Positions 18,991 through 62,384 of a stretch of DNA of 64,000 bases are shown in pieces. Within the stretch, counting starts at the first letter, position 1; each line of letters starts with the position of its first letter. Below the pieces are notes generated by a model. That model ran no database searches. It saw only the letters and a program-made list of their open reading frames with translations, and was not told the origin of the DNA. This stretch comes from Haplodiscus bocki. Taxonomy: Eukaryota. The stretch covers positions 35,588,001-35,652,000 of the forward strand of contig OZ296651.1 in NCBI GenBank assembly GCA_965655095.1, in the 5' to 3' direction. Both the position numbers and the translations under genes were made by a program.

Positions 18991-19642
18991 ACGCTTGCGT
19001 AAAAATGTTTTCTTTTACGATGAAGTCCGCAAATACTACAATTTCCGCAAAATACGAGTGACTTCTTTGCAACGTCAGGGAAACTAAACATGCAACGGCG
19101 CAGACAAGACTTGGTTTTTACCCTCACCAGGATGTTATCAACATGATGAACGATTTACGTACCCTGTTTCGAAAGCAACCTGACAATTTCAATACAGAAG
19201 TCATCCAAAAAATGTGTTTACCTGCAAAAATATTTCGAATTGGAACTTCAACAATTTAATTAGGAAAATGTTTAATCGGACATCCTTAATCTCAACCATG
19301 ATCCGCGCACTTACCTGAATTTACACTTTTTGCCGAGGAAACACAGTTTTAATATGGATAACATTATTGGATGAATTTGCATTTTCAAACCATTAGGAGT
19401 GAGTTTGAGGATTTCAGAGCCCTTACTTCATTGGATAACTCAACAAATATGAAAATTTTGCTTTTCGTGCTACGTTTGGTCAAATTGAACCTATCAGTTC
19501 TTTTATGGTACCAGAAACTGAAATCGGCTTCTGCGGATGTACGCTAGCGACAGCGAAAATTCCTTACGTTGCAACTTAACTTTATCAGGTTAGGCGGAGG
19601 AAAACTTGAGCAGAGGAGATCTGTAAAATCAAACCAACCAGC

Positions 19643-29104: not shown

Positions 29105-29156
29105 CTCTGGCTGTGGAAGGCAATAGCAAACCACGACAGTATCCTGCTAAGAAACC

Positions 29157-32100
29157 ATGAAGTTCAATATAGTAAATCAAAAAAACGACGTTAACGTAGC
29201 CCAAAGGGGAGACGCGTCCGGTATGGATTGCATCACCAGGCAGGGTGCACCAGATCGTCACCATGCTACTGCCAAGATGGAAGAGCAGAAGAAAAAGAAG
29301 AATGTGTTCAAAATCGCAACATGGAACGTGAGAACACTGTTACAGCATGGAAACTTGGAAAACGTGAAAAAGGAAATGGATCGTTTGAAATTCGATATCC
29401 TCGGAATATCAGAAATGCGTTGGAAAGGAAGTGGACGTATTCAAACCGACGACCACACTGGCATTTTCTCCGGCTCAGAAAACAGAAGCGAGATGGGAGT
29501 TGGATTGATTTTTAACAAAAAGTGGTCAAAGAAGTTGACCGGATTTTGGCCGATTTCTGAACGAGTCCTTCTGGCCAAATTATCGACCGCGCCAATGCCA
29601 ATGAATATTGCCCAAGTGTATGCTCCGACAGCAACATCAACAGATAGTGAGATCGAGGCATTTTACGATGATGTCAAAACAGCCATTAACAAATGCAAAT
29701 CCAGAGATATCACAATGGTCATTGGTGACTGGAATGCGAAAGTAGGCAACAAAGAGTCCTGTAGTGCCGTTGGACCTTTCGGACTGGATGAAAGAAACGA
29801 AAGAGGTGACAGATTTATTGAATGGTGCGAGGATCACAAGATGGTCATCAGTAACACATGGTTCCAAAATAGAAAAAGTAGATTGTATACATGGCGAAGC
29901 GCTGGTGATCGTACAAGAAACCAAATCGATTATATATGTGTGAATGAAAGATGGAGAAATTCCATCCTGGACTGCAAAACGTACCCTGGGGCGGACATCG
30001 GAAGTGATCACAATCCAGTTGTTGCAAAGGTGAGAGTGATTTTGAAGAAGACAAAAGCAGCTGAATTGAGACGCAGGAGGGATTATTAGTCTATTGATCC
30101 TGCTACCAGACATGGAATAAAACACTATGGAGGACAGATATGGACACACGAAGATCGAGAAACGAAAGAAACCACATGGGAGAAATTCAAACGTGTTTGT
30201 CATCTAGTAGATGAAAAATTTGTGCCTGTACGTAAACAACACAAAAACGGGTGGATCACTGAAGAGAACCTAGAATTAATGGAAAAACGAAGGACAGTTA
30301 AATTTGATGACAGAAGATACAAAGAAATAGACCGCATTATTAAACGAAAATGTATGGAGGAAAAAATGAAGTATTATGACGCGCAATGTAGGATTGACTG
30401 AAAAATATATGCCAAGAGATCACCATCAAAGAATACAACAAGTAACTGGTAAGAAATGGAAAAATTGAAAGGATTCTAACGTGTTAAAGGATAAAGAAGG
30501 AAACATCATGATTGAAAAAGATCAAATTATTGAATGATGGAGAGAATATATTGAAGAACTGTATAGTGACGATGAACGACTGCAAGAAACGATAAAGTTC
30601 GAGGGCGAATTGACTGGTAATAAAATTGAAAAAGATGAAATAGTGAAAGCAATGAATACAATGAAGACGGACAAAGCGATTGGAAATGATGAAATACCTG
30701 TCGAAACGATCAAAAATCTGGGCAACACTGGTTTAGATATGCTACAGAAACTATTTAACGAGGTAAATGAAAGTGGAAAATGGGATAATGAGATGATGGA
30801 ATCAACGTTTATACCGTTACCAAAGAAACCAAAGGCAATTGACTGTAGTAACTTCAGGACTATTAGCATAATGAATCACTCGACGAAAATATTATTGCGA
30901 ATCATCATAAATAGAGTGAAAAATGCCATTCATGCAGAAGTCAATGAATGCCAGTACGGCTTCATGCCGGATAAAGGAACTCGAAACGCCGTGTATGTAC
31001 TCAACCGGATCGCAGAAAGAAGTAAACAAGTACAGAAAAAGGTGTTTTGCTGCTTTATTGATTACACAAAGGCGTTCGACCGAGTCCAACACAACATTTT
31101 ATTTGAGATTTTGAGTGATCTAGACGTTAACGACAAAGATATCCGACTACTGCACAACCTTTAATTCGGACAGAAAGCGAATATCCGAGTCTCTAGTGCG
31201 AAGTCGGAAAATGTGGATATAAAGAAGGGAGTGAGACAAGGATGCGTTGCATCGCCAGATCTATTCTCATTATATTCGGAGGTGATAATGAGAGCAAAAG
31301 ACAGAGAAAATGGAGTCAACATCGGAGGCCATAATATAACTAATATCCGATTCGCAGACGATACAGTTTTAACAGCAAATACCGCAGACGATCTACAGAT
31401 TCTACTGGAAAAAACCAACGCGAAATGTAGAAAGTTTGGAATGGAGATAAATACGAAAAAAACGGTCATCATGGTACTAAACGGAGATGGAAAAATGAAA
31501 ACAGAGATCAAACTAAATGGTGAAGTTCTTAAAGAAGTGGAAAAATTCAAATACCTGGGAAGCTGGATAACGACTAATGGAGGACACATGACTGATATTA
31601 AATGTCGAATTGCCGAAACGAAAATAGCTTTTGCGGACATGAAGAATATACTAGCTAATCTTAAAATGCCGTTTGACTTGCGATAACGAATTTTGAATTG
31701 TTATGTCATGCCTATATTTCTGTACGGATGTGAAAATTGGATATTGAACCAACAACAAATTAAAAGACTGGAAGCGACCGAAATGTGGTTTATACGGAGA
31801 ATGCAAAAGATCAGCTGGAAAGAAAAGAAGACAAACGAACAGGTACTCAGAGAAACTATTGGAAAATGAAAATTAATACAAAAAATTGTGCAGCGACAAG
31901 TGTCATTTTTTGGACACGTTATGAGAAAAGGACAACTGGAAAACATCGTAACAACAGCAAAAATAAATGGAAAACGGAGGAGAGGAAAACCATCGATACA
32001 GTATATGGATCAATTTAAAAAATGGACCCAGCAAGAATCCATCGAGAGCCTGATGTCGAAAATTTACGAACGGACTTTATTGGTTGCCCAAGTCTATTGA
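29157..32100 (+). pseudogene. RTE ORF: APE endonuclease (29157-30089) plus reverse transcriptase, with frameshifts and stops
   Basis: APE motifs ATWNVRTL, ILGISE, YAPT, GDWNAKVG, IDY, SDH. RT motifs FRTISI, QYGF, FIDYTKAFD, GVRQGC..SP.LF, FADD, FKYLGS. Lesions at ~30089, ~30390-30540, 31162, 31684 and ~31868. Confidence 0.95.
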
Positions 32101-32558: not shown

Positions 32559-33713
32559 ACAAGAAAAGTTATTCATTCAGTAGGGTCGTTTTTCTTTTTT
32601 TTCAGACCAAAACTGCCAACTCTTTTTATTCAAAAATAAATGATAGCAGTGGGGTTAGGACAACAAGGTTCTCAAGTGGTAAGTTCGGGGTTCGACTCCC
32701 TCTTATGTCAAACTTTTTTACGATTTATCCTTAACAGTTTTTGATACCCGAATTAGTGAAACACTAAAGGGTTCCTTTACGAAGTTTTTCGGCATTGCGA
32801 GACAAAAAATTTTCGACGGAAAATCGCGATACTCGCTCCCCCCTCTTATCCAAAATTTTTTGATACCCGAAATTAGTGAAAAACTAAAGCATTCCCCTAC
32901 GAAGTTTTTCGATACTGTGAGACAACAACTTTTCTATAGAAAATCGTGATATGCCCCCTCTTATCCATAAATATTTTTCGATACCAGAAAACTTCCGGAA
33001 AACAGAATAGTTCTTTTACAAAGCTTTTCGTTTCGATCCTGTGAGACAAAAAATTTCGACAAAACCAAGATGCCCCCCTCCTATGCATGAAAATTTTCAA
33101 TAAAAGAATTTTTCTGAAGCACCAAAGTGTTCTCCATTGAAATATTTTGGTACAGTGAGACAAAAACATCGACGGAAAATCGTGATGTCCCCCCCTCTTA
33201 TCCATAAAATATTTTTCCCTACCAGAAATTTTCTGAAACACAGAATGGTTCCCTGGCGAAGTTTTTTCGGTCCCGTGAGATGAAAAAATTTTCGACAAAA
33301 TTGTGAAGCTTCCCCCCACCTTTGCTTGAAAATTTTCGATACCAGAATTCTTTAGAAACACCGAAAGGTTCTCCTACGAATTTTATCGGCACTGTGTGAC
33401 AAAGTTTTTTCAACGGAGTTTAGTGATATCCCCTTCTTATGTATAAAATTTTTCCTTACCCGAAATTTTCTGATTCACCGAAGTGTTCCCCAACGAAATT
33501 TTTCGGTATTGTGAGACAAAAAATTTTGAACGAAAAGTCGTGATACCCCCCTCTTTCGCATAGAAGATAGAAATCAGTGGTGGAATTGGTGTTTGTAGAA
33601 AAGTTTCGCAAACCAGATTTTACACAGTAGTCTCGTTTTTAACTGGGCAAATATGTTGATCAAAATATTTGTATTCCTGCGAACAATATGCCGGTGCTAG
33701 CCGGCCGTCTTGT
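32559..33713 (+). mobile_element. Non-autonomous element with an internal ~115-bp tandem array; Helentron/DINE-like ends
   Basis: ACAAGA at the 5' end and TCTTGT at the 3' end. Hairpin GCCGG-TGCTAG-CCGGC (33690-33705) just before the end. tRNA B-box-like GGTTCGACTCC at ~32689. Confidence 0.45.
32735..33560 (+). repeat. Tandem array of about 7 diverged ~115-bp units
   Basis: Recurring GATACCCGAAA...ACGAAGTTTTTCG...GTGAGACAAAAAATTTTCGAC...AAAATCGTGAT...CCCCCCTCTTAT. Confidence 0.9.
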
Positions 33714-43965: not shown

Positions 43966-45705
43966 TGTCGCAGCACACCTGCGAAGCCTGCGGGCAGATA
44001 ATCCCAGCAGCAAAGGACACCCCAGGCCCATCAAACAGAATCTAGGATTCTGAAGAAATCGAATATACTTTTAAACTAATGACTTTCCTTCATAAATAAT
44101 GTATTTTTAACCGTATGTATATATATATATAAGTACGTAGACACTACGTACCCCCACTAATGCATAATAACATGAATGGTATACGTGGATGGCACGTAAC
44201 AACTACGTGCCACCTAACGCTATCCCATTCATGAAAAGAGCACGTACCCTGTACGTGGAATTCTGGTGAACTGATCCTTATTGGGACGGAATAGATACGG
44301 AGCAAATGAATATTCATTGTATTTTATATTTATATTAGGTGCTATTTTATATAATTAATCAAACTAATTATTATATAAATCCACCTTTCTAAATTGACTA
44401 GTGCAGTATGTGATCTATTTAAATTGACAGCTTGTCGAGTTTCAATAGCTGGACTATTAAGAACAGAGCTTGACTTTAAAAGTGAATATTTGTTCCGTAT
44501 GTGTTCCGTCGTAACTAATCTGGTGACGTCACTAGAATTCTTAACCAATCAGATGTGCTATTAGGCTGCGCAACTTTGGTCGGCCACGTGTCGTCTACGT
44601 GCCACCGGATTCATTTCTCCTCAGTTGTACTGCGGAAGGTAGTGCTACAAGCGGCACGTAGCCGCCACGTGCCACCACGGCCAAAGTGAGCCGTAGCCTA
44701 GTAGAAACGTGGAACGGGCTAGGATTTACGCCTAGTTTGTCCCAGAAAATGAATTTAACCGATGCAACATGTAACCATGAAGATTTTCAGTATTAGTACA
44801 TATTTATTTCATACATTTCCATTTATTTTCAAGCGCATTTTTAAGTATTCTCCAATTATGGAAATTGCTTTGATCTTTACTTTATGTCGATATTTATGTG
44901 TCGGCGCGGGAATAACCACTTTGATGTCCATTTCCGACGGATCGGACCGTACTCTTTTCTGTCGAAAGATGGAAAGGACGCGGTCCGTGAGGGAAGAAAT
45001 GGATGGAAGGGTGTTTATTTCCCGCCAGAGTCGGCATCTTTTTCTTTGATATATAACATGATTAAAGTACTTTTCCCTATTTGTACCTTGACCTGGCGTG
45101 TAAACAATTATGTTTCCCGCCAAGGAAAGGTATAAATAGGAGAAATGAAAGTACAATTATTATTAATTAAATTGCCGCCTTACCGTACTGTACATTTATT
45201 AACCTTTGACTATTGGATTGAAAAGACTTCTCCCTCATATTAAAAGAGGATAATAATCTGACCAACAATACAAATAGAAAATTCAGTCTTGACCGCTGAA
45301 AAGGTTTTCCCAAGCGAAATGGCAACATTGAGAAATAAAAAAAGTTAGCAGCAGTTTCAAGAGAAACACTTGAAAGTACTAGAAGTGGGAGAGTACCGAA
45401 CATTCTAGACCCAGAATTAACTCAGGATTACATCTCTCAAGTCTTCGAAGAGATTGAAGGTAGAGTTACTAAAAAACTCTCAAAAGAATTCAGTAAAACA
45501 GAATCACGGATCTTGGGAGCCTTGTCGAAACTTGACGAGTTTCTCTTGAACCCACAAGTTCGGACTTGTTCCGTAGTTGCCCCAGGAACCTCTAGGAGCA
45601 ACAATCTAGAAAACCAGGGAACCAATGAGGATCGTCCCTCAGACGATCCTGGGCCTGAAGTGGAGTTTTCTTCCCCCATCCCAGGGGCAGAAACAAATCC
45701 TCACA
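43966..45705 (+). repeat. 5' LTR (1740 bp)
   Basis: TGTCGCAGC...ATCCTCACA; direct repeat of 57702-59439. Confidence 0.97.
44903..45138 (+). promoter_or_regulatory. LTR core promoter: three E2F-like sites and a TATA box
   Basis: GGCGCGGGAA (44903), TTTCCCGCC (45018 and 45113), TATAAATA (45131). Upstream are a CRE-like TGACGTCA (44524) and CCAAT (~44545). The same layout is seen in the diverged solo LTRs. Confidence 0.6.
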
Positions 45706-46943
45706 TGGTGACAGGAGTTACAAGAGAATTTCGTCAACACCCTCACGTGACTATGGAAACCCAAGAAGAAATTCCCTACTGTTCCACTAGTACTTCATCA
45801 GGGAAACAGAAGAAGGCGCGCTCCACAAGTCAACCTCAATTTCGCAGTGAGAATACCCCTGCGACACTGGAGGCAGACCAGATTTTGTTGGCCCTTCAGC
45901 AATTGGCAACGAACAGTAATTCAGCCAATTTCAACAACAACATTAGCCGAAATTCGAAACTGCCGAAATCTCTAACAACGACAATGCCCACGTTTGATGG
46001 AAAATCAGCGAAATTCGAGCTATTTGAAGACTTATTCCAAACGAGTTTGAAAATTCATAACCAGCTGACAGAAGATGACAAGATTAACTACTTCCACTCT
46101 CTCATGCGTGGCGATGCCTTGCAGACTTTCAAAAACATCACCAGCCCCAACAGAGAGAATCTGGTAGAAATTCTGACTGTATTCCGCAGGAAATATGTCA
46201 AACCCCAGTCAATGGCTACCGCGAAACACAAATTTCAACGACTAGTCTTCAATCCAACAAACCAGAAGTTAAATGATTTTCTTGACGAAATCCAGAAACT
46301 AGCGAAAGACGCATTCGGAGTTGCCGCACAAGCCATTATAGAACAATTCATCTATGCCAAAATGCCTCCTCACCTGAAGAAATCAATTAACCAGGCGCAT
46401 TTGGAGAATGGCACATATGAACAGATTGTGTCGCATCTTGAAAGGGAGTTGGAACTAAATGGTTTGGAAGCCCCAGATGAAATGCAACTAAATTCCGTGA
46501 TGCAACAAGACACACAACAAAACTCCGGAAAGCCCAAACCAACGTGCCACCATTGCAAAAAGCCAGGCCACTATCGAAATTAATGCCGTCAACTCAAACG
46601 AGAAAAAGACCAAGTCCAAAACAATACAGATAGTGCGACAAATCATAAAAATAGCAATGGTAGTGCCCAAACAAACTCTAACCCCAATCAAAAAGCAACA
46701 GTTGCAAATAAGGCGAACAATGCAAATAATCAAAGAGACAGGAAAACTAGACCTGTTTTCCCACCCTGTGAGACATGTGGCAGGACAAACCACTCCACGG
46801 AGAGATGCTACCTTGGAGCAAACGCAGCGAACAGACCGCCGCCCAGAAATAGACTGCCGGAAGGACAAAACCAAGCCCAACAGAGAAATACTCAAAATGG
46901 CTCAGACGGGAATGTCCAAGCTGCAGCCCAACCTTTAAACTAA
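45319..46943 (+). pseudogene. gag: Gag (~541 aa reconstructed), starting inside the LTR; two CCHC knuckles; 1-nt deletion at ~45338 and premature TAA at 46581
   Basis: The 3' LTR copy gives the intact start MATLRNKRKLAAVSRE (59052). Capsid-like MPTFDGKS..FELFEDLF; knuckles CHHCKKPGHYRN*C and CETCGRTNHSTERC; stop at 46941-46943. Confidence 0.92.
45706..45718 (+). other. Primer-binding site TGGTGACAGGAGT (tRNA-Leu-like), inside the gag frame
   Basis: TGG directly after the LTR-terminal CA. One mismatch to the tRNA-Leu-type PBS TGGTGTCAGGAGT. Confidence 0.75.
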
Positions 46944-46987
46944 CTGCGCCACGTTTTCACTCCGGAAATGCACGTCACATACCGGAG
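46934..46987 (+). promoter_or_regulatory. -1 programmed ribosomal frameshift signal (T TTA AAC) with a downstream stem
   Basis: The heptamer is in the correct phase directly before the gag stop. The -1 frame is open from 46934 into the protease ORF. CTCCGG/CCGGAG can pair at ~46960 and 46982. Confidence 0.85.
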
Positions 46988-49900
46988 ACTAATAAAACAA
47001 CTAAACTTCCACCAATTCCCGAGGTTGTCTGGCAGCAACCTACGGAGACCAATACAAAACAAGATGATGTTAATAATATTACTAAAGACTCAACTTCAAA
47101 GACTGATGTAGCACGTCAAACTACGCCACCTAAGGGAACCCAACCACAGAAATACGTGGACACCACGGAACAATCTTCAGGAAACAAAACAGGAAATGAA
47201 CCAGTATCGTTCCCCAGTTGCTCCAAAGACTCCTCTACCAATAGCCAAAATACAGAGCAGCACATAACGACTACCCCTAACAAAGAGATGACAACTCCAC
47301 CTCTCAATACAGCAACCCCACTAATTGAGGAAAGGCTAGTGAGAGATGAGCAGACAAATGAGTTGTACCTCCCATTAACATCTACAGTAGTCCTGAAACG
47401 AAAGCAAGAAATGCTTTATGTGCCTCTGGATTTTGAGAACAACCATACGGTAGATGCCCTGGTGGACTCAGGAGCATTTGTCAGTGGAATCGCCCAGGAT
47501 GACTTGGAAATGATAAAACAGAAAGCCCCGAATAACATTCTCAAAATCGACAATCCGCCCAATTTTCAAATACAAGTAGCTAATGGCCAGTTAGAGAAAC
47601 CATTATCAACAGCCACATTAAAATTTGAAACTGGAGATAACTCTTTCGCTGAACATTTCGTCGTAATGAAGAAATTAACGGGACCTATAATTGGGTTGCA
47701 TTTTATGAGAAACAACAGTGTAGTCATTGACACGACACACGGCCTCATACATTTTCCCCACTTGACGATGCAGGTGAAAACAGCCTCAAGTGAAATAACC
47801 ACCAAACCGCAACCAGTCATCATGGACGAAGACCTCACAATACCACCAGCGACAACAAAAACAGTCACAGCCTACAATGACCATCCCTCGAAATGGAACA
47901 CAACAGGCACTGTGACACCGTTGGAGAAGTTTACAGAAACAGCGAGTCTGCTGATTTCCCATTCAATGTCAACAATAATTGACAAGAGAATAGCAGTTAG
48001 AGTGACCAACACAACGGAATCACCATATCTCATCAAAAAACACACACAGATTGCAGAATTCTCCGTGGTTACTCCGGAGCAATCTAAACACATCAAACCA
48101 GTAGATATGGCAATCCTCAGTATGATTCCACAAGGCGATCCTGACCTAACTGCCTACCTAAATGAACTTCTCAGGACCAACAAACCCGAGCAGCAAGCGA
48201 ACACGTTCTGGTTCCCGACACCCGATAATCCTGGAAAGCCTGAGGATCACACCCCAATACAGACAAGAATCCTCAAGGAATTGAACGAACTGAAGGACAA
48301 GGAAAAACTCAATCCACAAGAGAGCGCAGAATCTCGAAACAAATTTCTCAAACGTTTTGATTGGACTGACACGCTTCTTACAGAAACGGAAAAACAAGCA
48401 AATGAAGACATCCTGGTTGAATATCATGATATATTGGCCAGACACAGAATGGATATTGGGATGAACACCGAGTTCCAGGTGAAAATAACTCCTAAAGACG
48501 ATAAAGCTGTATATAGCCAGAGTCTACCCATGCCAATCCACCTGAAAGAAGACCTGATTGTTGAACTGGCCCTAATGCACAAATATGGAATCATTACAGT
48601 ACTGCCCTTTTCCAAGTACGCGAGCCCAATAATTGCACAAAGGAAGCCTAACGGAAAACTACGTCTCCTTGTGGACCTACGAAAAATCAACAGTCTGATT
48701 GCAGATGACTATACTAATAACAATCATCCAGTTAGTACTCTGTCAGACGCAGCACAACACTTGGCAGGAAAGTCACTGTTCTGCAAACTAGATTGGTCCC
48801 AAGCGTATCACTGTTTGCAGATGGCAGAACAACGGTCAGTGGAGATGCTCGCATTCAATTTTGCCAGCAGAACCTTTGCCTACAAAAGACTAGAACAAGG
48901 TCTCAGCAGATCTGTGTCTGCTTTTTCAAGTTTCATGCGTGAGTATTTGGACCCAGTCGTCAAAGCTGACCAATGTGCTCAATACGTAGACGACATTGGA
49001 ATCGCAGCCAACAATGCCACGGACCTTACCCGGAATATCCGAGCAGTCTTCAAGTGCATCCGCCAAGCAGGATTGAAACTGACAATCGAAAAATGTCATT
49101 TTGGAGTCAGAGAAGTTGAGTTCCTAGGACGAACAATTTCACCAGAAGGAATCTCACCACAAGCCCGGAAAATCCAAAACTTCCTTGCTAAACTTCGATT
49201 CCCCAAATCAAAGAAGGCATTGCAGCGCTATCTGGGATTCGTGAACTATTACAGACATTATATTCCCAGAATGGCTGAAAAACTCAATCCGTTCTACAAA
49301 TTGCTTAAAACGGAAGTGCCAATCAATTTTACGTCAGAATTGAAAGAAACATTTGATTCAGTCAATGCAGCTCTCAGCAATGCGTGCGAATTAGCATTGA
49401 AACAACCCATTCCAGGAAAGTAGCTTGTCTTAATGACAGATGCCAGCTTCAGAAGTGCGGGATACGCCCTAATGATTGAAGATAACCCCGATCAAAAAAT
49501 ACAGTCAAAGCGGAAAACCTATGCCCCCGTGGCATTTGGCTCAAAAATTTTCTCCCCTGCACAACTTAAAATGTCTATATACTCCAAGGAATTTCTTGCA
49601 ATCTACATGGCATTTCTTGAATTTGCATACATTTTGTGGGAAGCAACAAAGCCAACGATTGTCTTAACAGATAACAAGTCTGTCACCCGCTTTTTCCAAA
49701 CGAAGGCAATCCCCCCAGCACTCTGGAATGCATGTGATTATGTATTGCAATTCAATTTTAAAATAGCACACATTGCCGGATCAGTCAACACAGCAGCTGA
49801 CTTTCTCTCTAGGCTTGAACTTAAAGTTACGGAGAAGATACGTGTCAAAATTCGGGAGGATATTCAGACAACACCCATTGAAGTGACCACGTTGTCCTCG

Positions 49901-51814
49901 GATGTTGCTGACGAAGAACAAGTTTTCTTCACTTGCGCAGACAACGCTCAAGAATCAGAAGAACAGACTCTTGAACGGAAAAAGCAATCGCGACAAAATG
50001 CGAAGCAATGGGCCGCGAACGAAGAACTACTTGCTTTAAAAACGAGTGTGAAAGAAATCACAAAGATCGACGGGAACACTACGTCGTTTTCCATCAACGG
50101 AATTAAAGCAACTGCAAGAATACGAGTAGAGCAGGACGTTGATCTTGTGTTGAAGAACCTGAAACTGAAAATTTTAGGCCAACCATTTGATGAAGTGTTA
50201 ATAACGACAGATTCGCGATACAAACATTACAAGGCAAATGAAGATCGCATAATCCTTAAAGATGGCCTATTATACAGAAAATATTTTGGAGAAACAGGTA
50301 GCGTCAAATACTACCAAATTCTTATTCCCAAGCAATTAGTTAAGGAAGTCCTACGCAGCTTGCATGGAGAATTTGGCAAGCACCAGGGAATTTTCAGAAC
50401 AATAATTGCTTGCAGGGAAAAATATTACTTTCCGAAAATGGCGCAATTAATCAGGGAGTGGGTCATGTCATGTGAGCAATGCATCAAAGAATCCCGTGTT
50501 GATCCCAGCCTCACCCGCCCTCCCCTGCAAAATCCAAACGAACACATTACTGCGCCCGAAGATGCAATTCAAATTGATTTGGTACCGGAATTACCGCCAT
50601 CTGGTGGTTACGAAAACATTGTGACAGCTATGGATGTGTTTTCCCGCTTTTTATTCGCGTACCCGACAGCAAATCAAGACGCCAAAACAATCGCTAAAGT
50701 CTTAATTAACATAATGACTAAGCACGCCTACTTACCAACGACGCTCATCTCAGATAAAGGTACAGCCTTTACGTCACATGTAATTAAAGAAGTGGCCGGC
50801 GTCCTTGGCGTTACTCTAAAGGACGCCACTACAAAGCACGCTCAAACAATTGGGCTACTTGAGCGATCTCATGCGTCAATCAAGAAAGCATTGAAGATTG
50901 AGACAGGCGAGCGGCGATCACTTTGGCATAAATACGTCAACATTGCAGTTCTCAATTATAACACTTCTTATCACACAAGCATTGGCTGTGAGCCAAGCCG
51001 AGTCTTTCACGGCAGAATTCCCTACAACATTCTTGATTTAAAATTGGGAATTCGCCCACAGCAACAGCCTATTCCCACTTCGCAAATTGCCCAAGATATA
51101 CTCGAGCAAACCGAAATGATCCACCAAGATGTACGCAAGAACACTATGCAAGCGTATACTAAATACAAGGCCTACTATGACAAAAAGGCCAACGCTTCAA
51201 AACTCAAAGAAGCAGATTATGTATATATCTTGCAGCCGAAAGCGGATCATCAAGGAAGCAAAATTCCATTCACAGAATTTCGATGGGTTGGCCCGTATAT
51301 TATCGAAAAGGCACTACCAAATAATAACTATCTGGTACGCAAAATTGGCACAAACAAGACGCAATTGCTTCATCGAATGAGAATGCGTCAATTTACACCC
51401 GGCCAACCACCAGCAGACATCACAGTCAAGCCGCAAGATTATAAATCCGATACCGAAGTGAATATTAATCACGACGATTTATATGCAAGGGCGTGGGAGT
51501 ATGATTTCGAGCAGCCAATTTTCGACGCCGAGAACGACAACGCGGCGCCACCCAATCCACGAGAAATTCCAGTACAGTCTGATTTTTTAACGGAGGAAAT
51601 GAGGAACACGCAAGGAGCCACACACGAGTGTTCCCCAGAAATTTTTCCCCCAACGGACGAAACTAGCGACGTAGCAGATACGTATACACATGTGGAACCA
51701 GATGTGGGGACAAGCTCGGAACAACAAGGAAATAGCCCGAGCAACCCCCGCAGCTCCAAATACAACCTGCGTCATAACCCGAAGCCGAATTGCAATGACG
51801 ACTACAGATATTAA
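46934..51814 (+). pseudogene. pol: Pol (protease, dUTPase-like spacer, RT, RNase H, integrase); single in-frame TAG at 49421
   Basis: PR LVDSGA; RT LRLLVDLRKIN and YVDD; RNase H TDAS and ADFLSR; integrase HHCC (H..GKH..CEQC), IDLV/SDKG/LERSH and GPY. ORFs 47156-49423 and 49433-51814 are in the same frame. Confidence 0.95.
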
Positions 51815-52093
51815 CTTGTCTGTGGAACAAGTGTGTTCCACGTATTGCGCACGTAGACATTCCTCCAAATGTGTCCCACGTAGTGCGCACGTGGGCGCTC
51901 CCTAAAAATCCAAACAAATGCGCTACGTGGCACGTAGGTGGCAGCCCGAACTGACTGACACACCTCGACTATGGCTATTCCCTGGCGACTAACTCATCTG
52001 CTACACAGTAAAGACTATTCCAAAACACGGCCACTAAGACTAAATTCATCAATATTCCATTATATATTTGGCCGGTTATTCCGCTATTATTCA

Positions 52094-52179
52094 TTTATTT
52101 CCTTTTTTCTTTTCTGTTTTGGCGGACTAATAGACTACTATTATATATATACATGCATTCAACAATAAATATCAATAAA
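52094..52179. terminator. Convergent candidate polyadenylation signals between pol and the antisense gene
   Basis: AATAAA on + at 52164 and 52174. AATAAA on - at 52094-52099, ~170 nt after the antisense stop. Confidence 0.5.
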
Positions 52180-52269
52180 GAAGGCAGTTCAAGGTGGCAC
52201 AACGAGCAAATCAATCAAATTGGCGAACGACAAAACAATTAAAAATGTTCAGATGCTAAAAAATTCTGT

Positions 52270-55200
52270 TTATGGAAAGCCCATTTGAAACACAGGAGCA
52301 GCGCGGCGATTGCGCCCACTCCGGCGAGACTTCCCATGAGAAGATGGAGCAGCTAAGGCAGAAGCAAAACTCGGGTCCTCTACCAAAGACCGCCTTGGGG
52401 GACTAACAAGGGGACTTGACACCTCGAACCTCCGTGGCAACTTCACCGGAATACGGGTGATTTTCCTCTTCCTCTTACTGGAAGGCGAACTAATTTTACT
52501 TGGCCCAGGAGAACCAAGAACAGGCGGACAAACAGGCACGTATTCAACACGACCCTCTTCCACAACGTCCAATATTCTCACCCCTGGCCTTGATGTTGAC
52601 TCAACTCGGGGGGCGCTTCCATGATGCCAACGCTCACTCGTGTCCTTGGCAGAACGACGACGCAGAACTACCCGATCCCAACAGGAGCACATGTCAGCAA
52701 TCACCTGGCTTGAAGAAGCGGACGCAACAACATTCCACGGAGCATACACAGGACTTGACGTGATGCTATCAGCGATGGCAACAGATTCAGACAGCATAGT
52801 CAAGCCTGTCTCCAAAAAGAAATTTCTCTGGGTGAAGTGCGGGCTCCGAACAACGTCCTCCACGCAAAGCAAGACACCACGCACTTCCTCTTTCCCAATG
52901 GCGACACGATCCAAATTGATTGTGAACTCATCACTTTTTGCTGATGACCCAAGGATCACAAGAGCCGTCAACTGGAACACCTGAAATACAAAACTGCACG
53001 AAATGCTGAGACAACTTTCAGGGGCCAAAAGATACAACTTGATTGCCTACGATACATACTTTGTACAGGTGCCGACGAGCGCGGAAACCAGCCTGTCCGG
53101 AACAGAACGACAGGACGTCACCTACGTCAGGGCGGCTCCTCGTGGACGACCGCTCCAGCTGCCGCTGTTCTCGAACAAAAGACTGGTACTCAGCCCGGCA
53201 CGCCTCTACCTCGCTCCCCCTGATCCAGCCTCTCTCCAGCAGCCCATCCACAAGCTTATTGAAAAGCTGCAGCGGAGCAACGTCGTCCCCACCAACCACA
53301 ATTGCAGGGCAAAAACAGCTTAACCCCTGCCCGATGACTGAGCGTGAGGCAACGGTGGAAAGCACGCAACTCAAAAAGTCTTCCAGAAATCGACGTGCAT
53401 CACGGCGGAATTCTTTTTGTAGAAATTGGCTAGCAACTTTGCCCAACGCAGCCATTACACGAGTGCCCTCCAGAAAGTGCTCGTCATCAATCGAAGCAAA
53501 ACGGGAATGATTGGCAACAACGTACTTTTCCCATTGTTCAACAAGAGGCAAAGACGATGCCTTCTTTACTTTCTGCAGCAAGCAGTACACAAATCGCGCC
53601 AACTCTCCAAAGGCGTGGTAGCCCTGGTCTGCTGCAGTTGGAGGATGAACGAAATTATTGGCAACTGAAACAGAAACATGTGTTAGAGACAGGGCGACGA
53701 TTCAAAGCGCCCACCAAAGTATCCTTACCATGTTCAAACTTCCACCCAAAACAAACAAGGAATCCCCATGGAGCAACACTCGTGTGTTCCCGGAAGGGGG
53801 AGCCAGCACGATTTCCGCAACCAAGGCACCCCCTCCCAACTGGAACAGAGACAAAACAGTAGGAGTACTTACAGATTTCAAGAAGGAGATGCAACAGACG
53901 GAACTTCGTGCGAGCCATCTGGTCCATGTAAAAGTACCCGTCAATTCCCTTCCTCTGAAACACAACGCAATACAATGAAGACGGGTACGGAAAGGGCACC
54001 AACACAAAGAAAGAAGGAAGACCTTACCACAAGACTATCCCCATCGTCTTTGCGTCCCGTCTCCTTCAAGTAGGAGACAATCAGGGGCCAAACGCCGACA
54101 ATGTTGGCAACCACCTCGACCAAATGGGGCATACTCAAATCGTTGGTCAGTATGGCTCTCCTCAAAGCGGGCCGGGAGGACATCCAATCCCGCGTCTCAG
54201 CGCCCTTTAGCCGATTGACGATAAACTCAGTCATGGCCAGCCCGTCCAAACTCCCAAACACACTCGAGGAGGTTCGTTGCAAACAACGTCTAAAGAGCCG
54301 AAGATCAAAGACCGGGTAGTCAATCAGTTTTTGCCGATACCCACTGCCCAGGTATTCGCGAAAGGCCTCCAAAAGCACAGTCGAGCCACCGATGATCGAC
54401 ACGATCTCCACCTCAGACCCAAGTGCATCAACCACCCGCCCCAATGCAGTGATCTCCTGATGAGGATCGCTGCTGTAGCGATCCAGGGTGGCCACACAGA
54501 CTCTCCTGAAGGTGTCCACATCCCAAGTGCGTAGAAACACCCGCACCTTGTCACCATCCTCCTCGAACTCCACACTGCACATTCCGTGTGACTTTGCCCA
54601 GTTCATGCAACGCGAAAGGATCCTCGGGTACATCCCATTCAGGATGATGGACTGAAACGACAAAGAAAGGAATGCACATGGGCCACGTAGAACATTACGA
54701 GCAACTTATAACTACTAACCAAGACCTCGTCGCGTGACCACGTAACGTCAACGTTGACGCGTACGGCAGACAAAGTGAACTGCGCCCAGAGACGGTAGAC
54801 CAGCTCATAGCTTCCACCCAGACGCAGCACTTCAATGAGGGAGGAAACCTTGGCCATCACCCCCAAGTTCGGGTCCACAGCACCAGTCTCGTCAACGATG
54901 ACGTCTTCACAGAAAGGGTACTCCCTGTCTCTCACGACCAAAGGAGCCCCCATGATCCTCTCTCGCTGGCGCTCTACCTCGGAAGGACTCATGACATTTC
55001 CCTCATAGTCAAGCACTTCCCAGCCTGGCGTCTCCAAACGCAACCGTTGATCGCGCGGAAAGTGCTTGCTGCCCTGAAAGTGCCGCAAAATCTCGTGTTG
55101 GCCATGAGTCAATACAGATACGTCCTTGAGACAAATTCTGCTATAAAAATGACTGGGTTTTGTCGCTGCATCTGTAGGCCCAGTCACAAAGAATCGCCCA

Positions 55201-56625
55201 ACTTCACCAGTTCCCCAAGCTCGCTTCATCTTATAAGCCTTCCTCGAACGCAATCTCCGCCGTGGCTCGCCAGCATCACTTTCGTCACCACTCGTGTCAG
55301 TGGTATCGCCCAATCGAGGAACAACACGCGCTGGCCCCTGCTCCAACTGCTCCAACCGACTCAGAACATTATCTAATCCTGTGAACAGCAAGTCTGCATG
55401 AAAACGAGGACAAAAGAAATAATGAGCAAAATGCGATGCACTGAACTAAAGAAGGAAAGAAAACATTCTGTGCTGCTGAAGGGAATAATACTAACTCGAA
55501 ACAATTGGGTCCAGAATCTGCGCCCGCTCCTCAGCACAAACAGAACGGCACAAACTAACAAGCTGGTGACCTGTCGCATTGATGGGCGTGATAGCAGGAT
55601 CAACGGAAAAATTGTCTAAAACAAAACAATGGAAATGAGGAACCATTGTGGGACGCCACTTAGCACTTCCTCAACCTTCAATTGATACTAACCATCGTGG
55701 AAAGCCTGCTCCAGCAATGCCCGACTGTGGTCACGACCTGCGAAGTCAACTGAAGTTGACGTACACCGCGCCAAAGGTACCAGGCGACGCGAAATTCTGG
55801 CACTTCTTGACCTCCTCTGTCCCCGCACTTCAGCTTCTGTCGAAATGTCCCCCTCCCCAAAATCAGCTCCTGGGACTTCTACTGGACCTGAAAACAGAAC
55901 AGAGATGAGATTGACTAAATCTCCCCCACTACAAACACGTAGAATAATGCATACTTGACTCGAAATCCATGGGAGCATTTACTGTAGGGCCATGACCGTC
56001 CTCACCTGACGAGCGCCCAACCTCCACCTCTGCCCCGGAACAAACCCGAGAACAAGAACCACTAAACTCTGGCTGACCAGCAAGTTCACCAGATGAATCA
56101 AACACTGAAACAAAGAGCCCCATGATGCCTTCTTCATGAAGAGGCGCGCGCTGTTTACTAGCTTATGGGAAATATGAGTGGCCACCATATGAATCCAGCA
56201 AAACAAAGCTAATGAGATATGAAGAAAGAAGACTCACGTGTGGGCAAACGAGATGTGTCAACAACACCCTCTGCCAAAGTCTCTACAGCAAAATTCGCCC
56301 GTGCCAATGCATCAGCAAACGTCCAGCCTTCGGACTCTGCACCAACAGCTGCACTGACCCCACTCATGATGTCAACAAAACTGTCGTTGTCATCTGCCTC
56401 TCCTTCACGATAACCTACAGTGCTCTCCTCACCGGAAACAGCATTGCCAGACTCTCCAACATGATCTTCGTCCTCCTCCACGATCGCAGACTCTCCAGGC
56501 ACAACGCAAACACTTGGCATCAATCTCACAGTCGATGTCGTCTCGTCAATCGCCAACTCCCCCTCCGCTGGACTTGACCCGCCCTCAGTGAAGAGAGTGG
56601 CCCATCTATTCTCCGAACTTGACAT
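52270..56625 (-). CDS. Spliced antisense accessory gene, 9 exons, 1177 aa: acidic N-terminus, BED-like Zn finger, degenerate hAT-transposase-like body, basic Ser/Arg-rich tail
   Basis: Exons: 56625-56238, 56104-55955, 55887-55693, 55615-55496, 55378-54720, 54651-54028, 53954-53873, 53664-53060, 52980-52270. They total 3534 nt with no internal stop. All 8 introns (67-208 nt) are GT..AG with pyrimidine tracts and matching phases. Confidence 0.88.
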
Positions 56626-57052
56626 TCAGAAATTGGTGAAAGACGGGGCTAATCAGCTAATGAGCTAACAATTTACATGGTGGATTTACATATTTATTCA
56701 TAAATTTCTTAATTATTCATTTAAAGTCTGATTAATTTATCTGCCAGCAATGACGTCAGCATGCATTTTCAAGGATGCATTGAGGAATCATACTCAAGAA
56801 GTCCTTGAATTTAGAAACTCCATTTTGAGATTTGTTTACATCTCATCAACTTGAATGGCACTCTTAACTCTCTACTTTCATTGACGCGGAGCAGCGGCGC
56901 GGGAACATCAAATGAAATCCCGCTTCAGAAAAGTGGACGACTATCATCAGCAATACTCATCACTCTACCAATTTTTATTCATCGCAACCAGTTGCTTCAA
57001 TTATACTTATTAAACCTATTTTTCTTCAACTCATAATCCGATCAGCATCACA
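56626..57052. promoter_or_regulatory. Putative internal bidirectional promoter
   Basis: 427-bp AT-rich gap between divergent ATGs. Contains TGACGTCA (56751), GGCGCGGGAA (56896) and TAAATCCACC on - (56679-56688); all three also occur in the LTR. Confidence 0.55.
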
Positions 57053-57781
57053 ATGTCACTCAATTCATCAGTAAACTCCACGGACTCTGACGTATTTTAT
57101 GTTGAGCAACTATCAGACGAGCCCAGTCCGCGCAGAAATAACACGCCGGACATACTCAACTCGACAGCGCGAACAGACCATCAAGCGATGAGGATGCCAT
57201 CATTCTCCACGATCGCATCCCCTCAGCCTCATTTCGTGACGATCGATGATGATTCCAACCAGATTACAATGGCTTATGGGTTTGGGCAGCAGCACCCGAT
57301 CGTTCCCCCCAGCCTGAATGATTTAAACCTGCCACCCAATCCCTTTAGTATATTAGCGACGATGGCCATAGCTAACAATACGGAACATGACAACGAACAC
57401 TACAGCCCGGAGTCACCGGACCCGTCACTACCATCATCCATATCGTCGCCCCCAATGAGCGTCAGTGCATTCCACAGTTTCGAAACGACGCACAGTACAA
57501 CGGACGACAACAACTTTTATTATTCGTCCGACAACGATCCAAGAAGGATATACTGGGAGACGTCTCTTAACGAAACCTTCGAGTCAAATGAGCCCAGAAG
57601 AGTGTATCCTATCGAAAGCCCTCCATCCACACCGCCGCCGCCGCCCCGAAAACTGAAGAGAAAGTTGAGCCTGGGAATGTCCTTTCCAAAAGAGGGGGGA
57701 GTGTCGCAGCACACCTGCGAAGCCTGCGGGCAGATAATCCCAGCAGCAAAGGACACCCCAGGCCCAACAAACAGAATCTAG
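57053..57781 (+). CDS. Accessory 242-aa Ser/Pro/Asp-rich protein overlapping the PPT and the first 80 bp of the 3' LTR
   Basis: Intact ATG-to-TAG ORF of low complexity. Contains PPPPRKLKRK (NLS-like) and a terminal HTCEACG. No signal peptide or TM segment. Confidence 0.75.
   Translation: MSLNSSVNSTDSDVFYVEQLSDEPSPRRNNTPDILNSTARTDHQAMRMPSFSTIASPQPHFVTIDDDSNQITMAYGFGQQHPIVPPSLNDLNLPPNPFSILATMAIANNTEHDNEHYSPESPDPSLPSSISSPPMSVSAFHSFETTHSTTDDNNFYYSSDNDPRRIYWETSLNETFESNEPRRVYPIESPPSTPPPPPRKLKRKLSLGMSFPKEGGVSQHTCEACGQIIPAAKDTPGPTNRI
57688..57701 (+). other. Polypurine tract AAAAGAGGGGGGAG
   Basis: All-purine run directly abutting the TG of the 3' LTR. Confidence 0.92.
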
Positions 57782-59439
57782 GATTCTGAAGAAATCGAAT
57801 ATACTTTTAAACTAATGACTTTCCTTCATAAATAATGTATTTTTAACCGTATGTATATATATAAGTACGTAGACACTACGTACCCCCACTAGCGCATAAT
57901 AACATGAATGGTATACGTGGATGGCACGTAGCAACTACGTGCCACCTAACGCTATCCCATTCATGAAAAGAGCACGTACCCTGTACGTGGAATTCTGGTG
58001 AATTGATCCTTATTGGGACGGAATAGATACGGAGCAAATGAATATTCATTGTATTTTATATTTATATTAGGTGCTATTTTATATAATTAATCAAACTAAT
58101 TATTATATAAATCCACCTTTCTAAATTGACTAGTGCAGTATGTGATCTATTTAAATTGACAGCTTGTCGAGTTTCAATAGCTTGACTATTAAGAACAGAG
58201 CTTGACTTTAAAAGTGAATATTTGTTCCGTATGTGTTCCGTCGTAACTAATCTGGTGACGTCACTAGAATTCTTAACCAATCAGATGTGCTATTAGGCTG
58301 CGCAACTTTGGTCGGCCACGTGTCGTCTACGTGCCACCGGATTCATTTCTCCTCAGTTGTACTGCGGAAGGTAGTGCTACAAGCGGCGCGTAGCCGCCAC
58401 GTGCCACCACGGCCAAATTGAGCCGTAGCCTTGTAGAAACGTGGAACGGGCTAGGATTTACGCTTAGTTTGTCCCAGAAAAAGAATTTAACCGATGCAAC
58501 ATGTAACCATGAAGATTTTCAGTTTTAGTACATATTTATTTCATACATTTCCATTTATTTTCAAGCGCATTTTTAAGTATTCTCCAATTATGGAAATTGC
58601 TTTGATCTTTACTTTATGTCGATATTTATGTGTCGGCGCGGGAATAACCACTTTGATGTCCATTTCCGACGGATCGGACCGTACTCTTTTCTGTCGAAAG
58701 ATGGAAAGGACGCGGTCCGTGAGGGAAGAAATGGATGGAAGGGTGTTTATTTCCCGCCAGAGTCGGCATCTTTTTCTTTGATATATAATATGATTAAAGT
58801 ACTTTTCCCTATTGGTACCTTGACCTGGCGTGCAAACAATTATGTTTCCCGCCAAGGAAAGGTATAAATAGGAGAAATGAAAGTACAATTATTATTATTT
58901 AAATTGCCGCCTTACCGTACTGTACATTTATTAACCTTTGACTATTGGATTGAAAAGACTTCTCCCTCATATTAAAAGAGGATAATAATCTGACCAACAA
59001 TACAAATAGAAAATTCAGTCTTGACCGCTGAAAAGGTTTTCCCCAAGCGAAATGGCAACATTGAGAAATAAAAGAAAGTTAGCAGCAGTTTCAAGAGAAA
59101 GACCTGAAAGTACTAGAAGTGGGAGAGCACCGAACATTCTAGACCCAGAATTAACTCAGGATTACATCTCTCAAGTCTCCGAAGAGATTGAAGGTAGAGT
59201 TACTAAAAAACTCTCAAAAGAATTCAGTAAAACAGAATCACGGATCTTGGGAGCCTTGTCGAAACTTGACGAGTTTCTCTTGAACCCAAAAGTTCGGACT
59301 TGTTCCGTAGTTGCCCCAGGAACCTCTAGGAGCAACAATCTAGAAAACCAGGGAACCAATGGGGATCGTCCCTCAGACGATCCTGGGCCTGAAGTGGAGT
59401 TTTCTTCCCCCATCCCAGGGGCAGAAACAAATCCTCACA
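57702..59439 (+). repeat. 3' LTR (1738 bp), includes an intact gag N-terminal ORF (59052-59456)
   Basis: Direct repeat of the 5' LTR, followed by TSD ACCAT. Confidence 0.97.
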
Positions 59440-60756
59440 ACCATATTGTGTTATAAAATTGCTTTTATAACAGGGGAACAGGAAACAATATGAAGTAGTG
59501 GAATTTACACCTTTATGGGTTTTTTTTGGCTATAGAATTTGCATTACCATCTTATTGACAATATTTGCTTCATACATATAGAACGTACACGTAGTTTTGA
59601 GGATATGCAGAGAACTCAATGTTTCCCTCATGCGGACATCGGTTGGATTGCTAGGGGCTGATTTCTCCGAAATTGACATTAGGATTCTGTTTCCATAATT
59701 TAGCGGCTTTCTTTTTCTAAGATATAGGCGACGTCACCGGCGGCTCTTGGCAAAAAACGGCCCATCTTCAATTTTTATTCCAAAAGTGTGCTATTAAATG
59801 AAATGTGCGCGGCAAATCTTAGAATGATAGCGGCGGCATGGGTTGAAAGTATGTGGGATCTTGTAAAAATACTGGCGCTTCACAGAAAAAACTTGACCTA
59901 GCCAGTTATCTTCCGAAAATACTCTTTTTTACTTTGTTTTACTTATCTTATTGATTTTTTTGTCAGATTCATCAGTTGACTACAAAAACTGTACTGAATG
60001 AATTCATCTTCTCTGGAAGTGATGCATGAAAAATCATGGAAACAACGTAAAATGATATCCAGTATTCCAGTCTACACTATATCTTTGATCGAACTTTTGG
60101 TAACATTCATTCTGTTGATAGATTTACAGAAATCATCGAAATCATAAGGAAGAATAGCATAATCTAAAGCGTACATGACATTGCCAAGAAACCACAACTG
60201 AGGGTCAGATATCTCCTGAAAATATTGCATGACTTTGGTGCTGGTTTCACTAGATTTGATTTCTGGAAGTCTTTCGGGGTTTCTGAACAGCTCTGGATAC
60301 TTCGGCAATACTTGCTGAAGGTGTTCCGCAAGGTTCTCAAAAAGCACCACATCATTCCATACAGCCGAGCATGAGAAACACCTGTCCTGGACCACAGATT
60401 GCCAGTGCCACCACGTCCAGATTGGGGTATTAATCTGAAATAAAACTGATGACTTTGAATAATCAATCAGATCTCTCTAGCTTTTCTTTTTGGTTCTAAC
60501 AAAATTTCAAGCTATCAGGGATGCAAATCATTCAGAATATATTCTGCGTATCTCCTATCTGATTAGGAAGCTTATAGTTAACGAACTCGTTGGAAGTGAA
60601 CCCACACTTGATTTAAGTTATATATTTAGCTATGTTTATTGTTGAAATACTTGGTAAAAATTCAAAGCAAGTTTTCGCCAATATCGAAATTTCCGTTAAT
60701 GCTGCTCAAAAAATTCCGCTTACATTTTGTTTGGCAACTTTTTAAAAAAAATTACC

Positions 60757-62384
60757 TGTCACAGCGCATCTGCGAAGCCTGCGGGCAAGCAATACCAAAA
60801 GAACGGACATCCCCTGACTCTCAAAAAACTAATATTCCCCATTTTATCAAACAACTCACTCATCTTTATGTTTTATTTGCATGTAAAAAGTTCCATAAAA
60901 AATGGATCACTTCAATGAACTGATCTAGACTAGGACGGAACTCTTATGCAGAAAAATGTAATCACCTAGTAGTTTATTATAGCCTAAAAGGTGCCATATT
61001 TAAAACCACTTTTTCACTTAAAATAATATAAATCCACCTTCCTAATTGTACAGGAAAAACCTGGTGTAAAATTATTTGAAATTGATCCTGTCAATGAAGT
61101 GAAACAGTGCTACTGCAATTAAACTTGCAAGACTCTAGGAGTGAGCAGTTGTCCCGTACGTGTTACGTCGTTACTACTCTGGTAATCTGGTAACATCAGA
61201 GTCACTCCGACTAATATGAAAGTGCTAGCTTGCCTTGCTAAGAAAGCTGAAGACGGATCAACTCCGTATTCCTTCCGTCACGAGGCATAGCCAATATACT
61301 TAACTTAGTGCTACAAGCAAACGTGGAACTGTTCTGGAACATTTTAGCTGAAATGAAGAACATTTTGAAAAAGTTCATAGTTTCTACCTAGTTTTAACCA
61401 TAACCTTCCAGTAAGTGACCATAAATTTCTTTTGGTTTCAACATGATTTAGTTGTGACCATTCTTTATTATTATTTTCTTTGTAATCTCAAAACTTATAT
61501 TGTGATTTATTTTTGCCTTCTGGGGGATTCGTAAAATTTCTTTGTTTTCTCCGCAATGGCCTTCAATTGACTATTTTTGTTAGCAATTAACGTTGCAGCG
61601 CAAGAATATGAACTTTAATGTTCATTTCCGACGGAATAGGTCCGTTCATTTTCTGTCGAGAGATTGAAAAGGCTCGACCCGTGAAAAAATTGGATGGAAA
61701 GGTAATTAATTCCCGCTAGAGTTGGCATTTTCTGCCTTGTGAAATTTATGATGAAAGTACGCTTCCTCGTTTTGTACCATGACTTGTAGTGTAACCGTAT
61801 ATCTTTCCCACCAAAGAAAATGTATGAATAGGAGAAACGGAAGTACTAACTTTCACGTATCATTGTAACCCTTGACAGTATTCCGTGACTGACGACTTCA
61901 AGCAGTGCAACCTTCCGAGTTGTTTTACATGTTAAAAACTCTCATGCAGTCATTAAAACTGCCCAATTTTTTCCCGTGGAATGGCAACACGGAGGAAGAA
62001 GAGAAAAGTAGCAGCTAAGAAAACTTCAAGAAAAACAACTTAGAAACCACTTGTCACGAGATACAACCGCTTCTAGAGTCCATGAAGACTATATTATTCA
62101 GATGCAAGGGGAGGTAAAAGGGACAGTGTCAAACAATTTATCTCAAGTGTATATTAGGACAAAAGGTTGAATTTTGGGCGCTCTGTCGAAATTACATGGA
62201 TTCCTTTTGAACACAGAGGGCCAAGTGCAACCCGGAACCGTTTCGGGAACATCCCAGAACTCCAATGGAAAAATTCAGGAACTCAGTGAGAACCGTTCTC
62301 AGATCGACTATCCTCCTTAAGTCGTTAACTCCGTTAATTGGGCCCCTCAGTCTATGAATTCGGACCCACATGAGGTTTGTTACA
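60757..62384 (+). mobile_element. Old solo LTR of the same superfamily, TSD TTACC/CTACC
   Basis: Starts TGTCACAGCGCATCTGCGAAGCCTGCGGGCA (frame reads SQRICEACGQ). Gag start ATGGCAACACGGAGGAAGAAGAGAAAA at 61981. Ends GTTACA. Confidence 0.8.

Follow-up and report, generated by a model that had tools for sequence, protein, structure and literature searches.

What is a gene that resembles a DNA transposase doing inside a retrotransposon, and in antisense orientation? The question is raised by a 64-kb stretch of the 1.5-Gb genome of Haplodiscus bocki (assembly GCA_965655095.1, contig OZ296651.1, positions 35,588,001-35,652,000; hereafter the window, whose coordinates are used throughout), in which a 15.5-kb long terminal repeat (LTR) retrotransposon occupies positions 43966-59439. 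Between its pol region and its 3' LTR lies a predicted gene of nine exons and 1182 amino acids on the minus strand (56625-52270), referred to here as the cargo. In the most far-reaching reading, to which we give a probability of about 40%, domestication by a class I lineage turned an entire transposase of class II (hAT) into a factor that serves the element in trans, in transcription or against silencing. The gene would be carried as an intron-bearing antisense cassette whose ancient allelic types are swapped like retroviral accessory genes, and it may have aided the expansion of the element to thousands of copies.

Minus-strand open reading frames (ORFs) without a Pfam match lie in the 4.5-kb stretch that separates pol from a small sense ORF, and nine exons joined at GT-AG sites yield a single stop-free frame of 1182 codons. 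Exons 1-4 (56625-56238, 56104-55955, 55887-55693 and 55615-55496) encode an acidic, fast-evolving N-terminus, exon 4 being conserved and exons 1-3 less certain. Exon 5 (54720..55393, amino acids 285-509) contains a basic patch, a BED-type CCHH zinc finger (55151-55062) and a conserved insert of ~60 amino acids, and exon 6 (54028..54651, amino acids 510-717) encodes a predicted RNase H-like β1-β2-β3-α-β4 unit. The short exon 7 (53873..53954, amino acids 718-744) is followed by a 208-nt intron whose length differs between families, exon 8 (53060..53664, amino acids 745-946) is predicted to be helical and is likely an insertion domain, and exon 9 (52270..52980, amino acids 947-1182) faces the E helix and dimerisation part of hATs, has no conserved acidic residue and ends in a divergent tail with a basic KRKRK patch. 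A tenth candidate exon at 53839-53729 was dropped because its frame is not kept across families. In two families (L099-L101, L161, L163 and L171) intron 7 lengthens by tandem duplication of CTAGGA-containing units.

Purifying selection acts on the cargo gene, and conservation extends to its splice sites. Among 73 elements, and for exons 4-9, donors read GT in 66/69, 68/71, 67/71, 70/70 and 62/68 readable cases and acceptors read AG in 67/69, 54/59, 66/72, 66/69 and 60/66; the exon-5 acceptor is AG in 14/63 and is not resolved in diverged families. The ratio of nonsynonymous to synonymous substitution rates (dN/dS) of the cargo is 0.11-0.19, like that of pol, in all 20 copies of intermediate divergence (84-93% protein identity). 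Against 29 very close copies the pooled dN/dS is ~0.5, as expected where recent mutations acquired after insertion dominate; a frame of at least 1150 codons is kept in seven of these 29.

The motifs that an earlier note had quoted from 52900..55160 as signs of a catalytically dead hAT transposase are all present on the minus strand in the order it gave, which, within one spliced frame of this length, is more than chance; the interval itself was too narrow, as the gene extends past both of its ends. The motifs comprise the finger HFYSRICLKD...HFQGSKH (at 55151-55062), CSVEFEEDGD (from 54579), SIIGGS (around 54390), ETRDW (from 54198), WPLIVSYL (from 54090), EACRAEYQSF (from 53206) and LYK/VFQL...SDEF, which spans the intron at 53059-52981. 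The first finger cysteine is encoded by AGC at 55142-55140, as had been noticed, and this change is private to the window copy. In the alignment, whose 71 rows represent 66 distinct loci, five of them present twice, the zinc ligands are Cys in 68/71, Cys in 68/71, His in 66/71 and His in 68/71, the window copy carrying Ser for the first Cys. The cargo family therefore possesses the N-terminal BED zinc finger, of CCHH or CCHC type, that belongs to hAT transposases.

The cargo very probably descends from a hAT DNA transposase, at the strength of remote homology judged from sequence and structural models, because three partly independent lines (finger, fold and C-terminal half), none strong alone, point the same way; the origin proposed in the earlier note is thus upheld at that strength. 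For the sequence comparisons, a hAT subgroup (including L210, L222 and L224) was gathered from metagenome contigs with a hAT motif, and three of its members exceed the PF05699 cut-off. A cargo profile places the subgroup's four longest proteins at the top of 100 hAT sequences and 100 reversed decoys, with E values of 4e-4, 4e-4, 6e-3 and 0.56, two of the four being near-identical. HHalign of the cargo against the subgroup gives an E value of 3.1e-4 and a score of 44, compared with a maximum of 29 in 30 shuffles; the tool's own run gives 6.9e-4, and the finger alone 5.7e-6.

The second line comes from predicted structure. An AlphaFold model of the natural read-through of exons 5-6 (22 alignment rows, mean predicted local distance difference test score, pLDDT, of 40) shows the order helix-β1-β2-β3-α-β4-α, with a core pLDDT of ~70. 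A second model, of exons 6-9 joined in a read-through in which X stands for each stop (mean pLDDT 42, from 81 rows), reproduces the core at pLDDT 68-87 and predicts only helices after it, mostly below 50. In a Foldseek search with the first model, Hermes chains fill each of the ranks 1-12, the best with an E value of 6.6e-4 across 399 columns, and ISCth4 is 39th; with the second, Hermes is again first, at a non-significant E value of 0.035. The RNase H-like core expected of a hAT transposase is predicted in both models, with Hermes ranked first each time.

The third line is collinearity beyond the finger. An end-to-end profile aligner run from the finger to the C-terminus gives z scores of 7-8, falling to 1.5-3.0 without the finger, and the half from the TRW block to the C-terminus gives 2.8-3.9, a value reached by 0-1 of 60 shuffles in each of eight tests. 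The aligner pairs cargo ETRDW with SVRW of the hAT subgroup, WPLIVSYL with FAALKSYF, FRRDARRF with FLNAARAF and LYKVFQL with LAKMAKL; one setting also pairs RDEVLSIILNGMYP with RTKSTCLLNDAISP and CSVEFEE with FSLCVDG. In exon 5, an RDE..II..GM.P block faces RTK..LL..AI.P of hATs. For the helical insertion domain and the C-terminal core helix, the profile z scores of 2.8-3.9 stand beside a low-confidence model and a non-significant HHalign result.

If the cargo is hAT-derived, its canonical catalysis has very probably been lost. On the register given by one of several alignment settings together with the predicted strand order, the D1 site of the DDE (Asp-Asp-Glu) triad would be Glu (54564-54562), the D2 site Gly (54387-54385; Gly in 69/71 rows) and the third position variable, with no conserved acid before the invariant Phe at the E site; the loss of the catalytic residues inferred in the earlier note is supported, at remote-homology strength. 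On the same register the C/DxxH motif is also missing: its site reads YPxFD (54318-54304), with YPxFD[LVA]R in all lineages and no Cys or His, followed by the TRW-like ETRDW at 54198-54184. The reference hAT subgroup retains D, D, CxxH and E. In Hermes, the His of CxxH touches the scissile phosphate (PMC7780238). Conservation between deep cargo lineages is highest in the finger (identity 0.79) and at the start of the likely insertion domain (0.66-0.79) and, within the body, lowest in the β1-β4 stretch (0.43-0.48) and the E region (0.49), whereas the acidic N-terminus and the tail diverge fast. Such a pattern fits a lost active site on a retained scaffold. The suggestion that the transposase was kept as a DNA-binding factor is right only in part, as the whole transposase body is conserved and not the finger alone.

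The cargo is consistently part of the retrotransposon. In 71 of the 73 elements, an integrase is encoded on the opposite strand no more than 4.5 kb from the cargo, and the same gag-pol/cargo layout between direct repeats is found in all 12 diverged elements read over 20-30 kb; the elements were chosen by cargo similarity from best-scoring lists, so that rare free copies of the cargo could be missed. Within this association, the ~4.5-kb cargo cassette is swapped between element backbones, because cargo and integrase trees conflict and the cassette has sharp edges. Two elements (C_L164 and C_L166) are ~82-96% identical to the window copy over LTR, gag, pol and the sense ORF, and only 57-64% identical over the cassette where it can be aligned, with edges near 52200 and 56700. 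In a quick tree of the cargo, C_L164 nests with L276, L279 and L283 at support 100; in a FastTree of the integrase it groups with the window copy, and the branch that separates the two groupings has support 1.0 (the placement of L284 and L279 in this tree is unreliable, owing to a long branch and 52 residues). L303 has the sister integrase of the window copy and a cargo of a different clade. Synonymous divergence (dS) of the cargo is saturated between lineages while that of pol is 0.25-0.38.

We put at even odds that the cargo is a nuclear, non-cutting, DNA-binding accessory protein that keeps its element transcribed. In the mechanism that we propose, an intron-containing hAT gene would have entered the retrotransposon in antisense orientation. 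That antisense placement shields introns from loss through reverse transcription is established logic: because the gene is antisense, splicing of the packaged genomic RNA would not remove the introns, which would survive reverse transcription. The same placement requires an internal promoter, and the cargo would be transcribed from its own, at ~56.6-57.0 kb, where a conserved non-coding block (56626..57013) with the word TGACGTCA is the likely cargo promoter; the exact 19-mer is present in 42/73 elements, and the cassette edge at ~56700 falls within the block. Between the two divergently oriented accessory genes, a TGCCAGCAATGACGTCAGC block at 56730-56770, likewise exact in 42/73 elements, is possibly a bidirectional promoter.

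The resulting nuclear protein of ~1180 amino acids would retain the finger and the transposase scaffold, be multimeric and not cut, and would bind non-coding DNA of the element, for which the candidates are CpG-containing words, [A/C]CG[T/G]AG, that form clusters in U3 and the spacer after pol; it would then activate the LTR or shield it from silencing. Such a role has precedents: sequence-specific activation is described both for transposases and for their dead derivatives, which recurrently lose DDE (bioRxiv 10.64898/2026.08.24.746577), and, in another account (PMC10368747), all hATs are predicted to have a BED finger, that of Hermes binding short quasi-palindromic subterminal repeats.

The spacer between the pol stop and the cargo stop (51815..52269) contains clustered CACGT(A) words, which are also clustered in U3 of the 3' LTR (57702..59439). 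U3 (57860-57990) and spacer (51828-51960), 6 kb apart, share a lineage-specific clustered word, of CACGT type in one backbone group and CCGGA type in another, and the two sites change together (L261-L320), which suggests a trans-acting factor or a switch of host factor. A shared degenerate core word, picked after the fact, occurs 286 times against 34 expected in 70 spacers and 369 times against 61 in 72 U3s. This sequence pattern makes it a candidate target of the cargo protein; host factors are likewise candidates for recognising it. A lock-and-key relation of the kind described for VANC, with finger and motif co-varying, is not supported, since the CACGT or CCGGA type follows the integrase backbone and not the finger.

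Several observations weigh against our reading. (i) No Pfam hAT family was found in any exon or in 48 alignment members; the best Pfam match among the five cargo ORFs, two alternative frames and these 48 members is a C2H2 finger (E 0.0014), and the PF05699 dimerisation region gave nothing at E≤1 in the exon-9 ORF or the 48 members. (ii) A PDB sequence search with two profiles returned 0 matches. (iii) HHalign against three other hAT profiles, from this genome (Ac/Hermes-like) and from DUF4371-type relatives, stayed at shuffle level, as it did past the finger against the best subgroup. (iv) In the profile aligner the N-terminal core alone reaches z scores of -1.2 to 1.1, which are not significant, and only one of the three settings whose alignments were inspected yields the expected core register. 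(v) The subgroup was chosen via a hAT motif, so that the finger test was not blind. (vi) Both models have a mean pLDDT of ~41 and Foldseek TM-scores of ~0.2 or lower, and VIA-align gives a near-tie between ISCth4 (Z 6.7, root-mean-square deviation 2.9, 92 residues aligned), glucokinase (6.3, 3.0, 94) and Hermes (6.2, 3.7, 111); therefore the fold alone says only RNase H-like. (vii) Within one cargo clade, the same finger helix occurs on CCGGA-rich (L276-L283) and CACGT-rich (C_L164, C_L166 and L284) backbones, and words of these types resemble host factor sites.

When the core was aligned locally and without constraints to the best subgroup, the result was misregistered and not significant. 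A wide VIA-align search with the second model was uninformative, its best 50 rows being taken up by one helical hairpin (Z up to 7.8) and including no hAT, and the ESM Atlas gave no usable match for exon 6. Protein-database searches with the cargo found only the same family among the matches listed (the best 150 of 1489 and the best 120 of 2057). Searched for at the DNA level, the hAT motif gave 0 matches in the H. bocki genome; a protein search found six degraded subgroup members there, none close to the cargo, and therefore no donor is identified. The 25 longest of 45 inverted pairs include none whose arms link the two edges of the cassette, so that no hAT terminal inverted repeats (TIRs) around the cargo were found among them; nor was an 8-bp duplication, the only duplication found being the 5 bp of the LTR element. 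The genome also contains several open hAT transposase families of 591-652 amino acids (L102-L107 and L196), one of them with many copies of equal score.

Among the alternatives, the one that survives best, although we consider it unlikely, keeps the hAT-derived dead transposase and moves its action to integration, where it would hold the cDNA ends or use its finger to tether the integrase complex to host chromatin. This role would suit a protein conserved over its entire body, the likely insertion domain included, and is consistent with the basic patches resembling nuclear localization signals and with a finger that is near-invariant between lineages, as for a fixed host target. However, 21 LTR ends were recovered from the 73 elements, four of them 5' LTR ends; in the 17 3' flanks no preferred base is visible by eye, and none matches the element library, in a small, weak test whose end call was off by two bases. 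Moreover, a close partnership with integrase is hard to reconcile with cassettes that pass freely from one integrase lineage to another. The three roles that the earlier note had offered (transactivation, anti-silencing and integration tethering) are candidates only; finger and motif do not co-vary, and the 3' flanks are free of target bias.

Slightly less probable is a protein of the same origin that acts in sequence-independent counter-defence, where it might serve silencing factors as a decoy or scaffold, the exchange of cassettes then reflecting an arms race like the swapping of env and accessory genes. Cargo lineages far older than the backbones that carry them, a finger indifferent to the element's motifs and a rapidly diverging acidic N-terminus and tail all suit this possibility, whereas the strong conservation of the four zinc ligands and their flanking basic residues argues for nucleic-acid binding.

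More doubtful again is an origin outside hATs proper, in a different gene with an RNase H fold and a BED-type finger, be it a DDE enzyme of MULE/IS256-like or other type or a ZBED-like gene of the host. The level standing of ISCth4 with Hermes in VIA-align, the lack of a significant sequence match between the core and any hAT profile, and the eight introns, which would also suit a captured host gene, speak for such a source. Against it, in profile comparisons confined to hATs, one and the same hAT subgroup is favoured by both the finger and the C-terminal half, with other hAT sets matching more weakly or not at all; Foldseek separates Hermes from ISCth4 widely with the first model, and a host ZBED-like gene would itself be hAT-derived. 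Finally, a rebuilt site with which the protein could still bind metal or nick DNA, for instance in cDNA processing or for a plus-strand primer, is very improbable: conserved acids remain at D1 (Glu in 63/71), in YPxFD (Asp in 68/71) and in ETRD (Glu in 71/71 and Asp in 70/71), but D2 is almost always Gly, the E site varies and the active-site strands are the least conserved part of the body.

The carrier has the features of a Ty3/Gypsy element, namely gag, then protease, reverse transcriptase (RT), RNase H and integrase, LTRs with TG..CA ends, a primer-binding site (PBS) and a short target-site duplication, with Pfam matches on the plus strand. The LTRs are ~1.74 kb long and ~98% identical to each other, and the element is bracketed by the 5-bp duplication ACCAC/ACCAT. 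The 5' LTR (43966..45705) is followed by a PBS-like TGG, and on the same plus strand lie a gag-like ORF, measured stop to stop (45339..46583; Pfam DUF1759 1e-8, Retrotrans_gag 8e-5), and pol (46853..51814), made up of a protease-RT part (46853-49423) and an RNase H-integrase part (49424-51814), with RVT_1, RT_RNaseH, Integrase_H2C2 and rve among its Pfam matches. In the window copy one in-frame stop (49421-49423) splits RT from RNase H-integrase. The small sense ORF (57014..57781, plus strand), a second accessory gene of 255 amino acids, runs into the 3' LTR; it is conserved (dN/dS mostly 0.07-0.19), has no Pfam match and is swapped independently of the cargo, being only 59-86% identical in most copies whose cargo is 96-100% identical.

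The family is very abundant, with thousands of candidate copies: a DNA search of the genome gave 4196 candidates, 33 of which were scored (identity 96-100%), and a protein search with exon 6 gave 6368, of which 150 were scored (identity at least 86%), these totals being candidates and not copy numbers. The element is flanked on either side by LTRs that belong to the same superfamily and are diverged and solo or partial (19642-23145 and 60756-62323). Elsewhere in the window are a broken long interspersed nuclear element with endonuclease and RT, recognised by Pfam (29151-31686), a ~119-bp tandem array (32751-33545) and a pair of 410-bp inverted repeats (13221-14057).

How does the cargo compare with known systems? 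It resembles hAT transposases (Hermes, PDB entries 8EDG, 4D1Q and 2BW3, and the subgroup L210, L222 and L224) in its CCHH BED-type finger, its TRW-like and W..L..Y-like blocks and the likely domain order of finger, RNase H-like core, helical insertion and C-terminal region. Unlike them, it lacks the triad and CxxH on the inferred register, has the ~60-residue conserved insert after the finger, a long acidic N-terminus and an extra tail (1182 amino acids compared with 684-900), has no TIRs and lies inside an LTR element. Without triad, CxxH, PF05699 region and TIRs, the sequence is not that of a functional hAT transposase.

The closest parallels in position are antisense ORFs in Ty3/Gypsy elements of plants: TRP28 of Retand (PF04195), gene23 of Grande and that of RIRE2. 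According to PMC7264820 and PMC11963269, these too are antisense genes between pol and the 3' LTR, present in nearly all copies and with a proposed nuclear or DNA-binding regulatory role; an own promoter has been demonstrated for Grande gene23, and no origin is traced, the lack of similarity leaving an origin by transposable-element insertion unsupported. The cargo differs from them in that it would trace to a class II enzyme and has eight predicted introns, and its identity with TRP28 was rejected, as no PF04195 match occurs in the cargo ORFs or the 48 alignment members. Accessory ORFs swapped between retroelement lineages are shared with the LTR retrotransposons of bdelloid rotifers, whose ORF3 cargo, exchanged between lineages, includes DEDDy nucleases, GDSL lipases and env-like genes (PMC5408684); the word 'transposase' is absent from the main text of that paper. 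ORF capture downstream of pol is reviewed in PMC6431247.

A hAT-derived cargo in an LTR element was not reported in the literature searched, subscription papers and supplements lying outside its scope. Antisense genes between pol and the 3' LTR are already known, and reviews call their origin and function unknown; here such a gene can be traced, with moderate confidence, to an enzyme of the other transposon class. That trace would make the cargo a case of transposase domestication by a mobile element and not by a host, and a direct test of the claim that dead transposases turn into sequence-specific regulators in one step, with natural cassette swaps between backbones providing matched variants for locating target and function. 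VANC of VANDAL elements is reportedly an element-encoded DNA-binding regulator whose finger co-varies with its motif, a relation not seen for the cargo, and host ZBED genes are transposase-derived regulators. Like the cargo as we read it, Spm TnpA and MUG/FAR1 are transposase-derived or element-encoded non-catalytic DNA-binding regulators, according to bioRxiv 10.64898/2026.08.24.746577. TnpA, MUG/FAR1, VANC and ZBED serve their own DNA transposon or the host, whereas the cargo would serve a retrotransposon.

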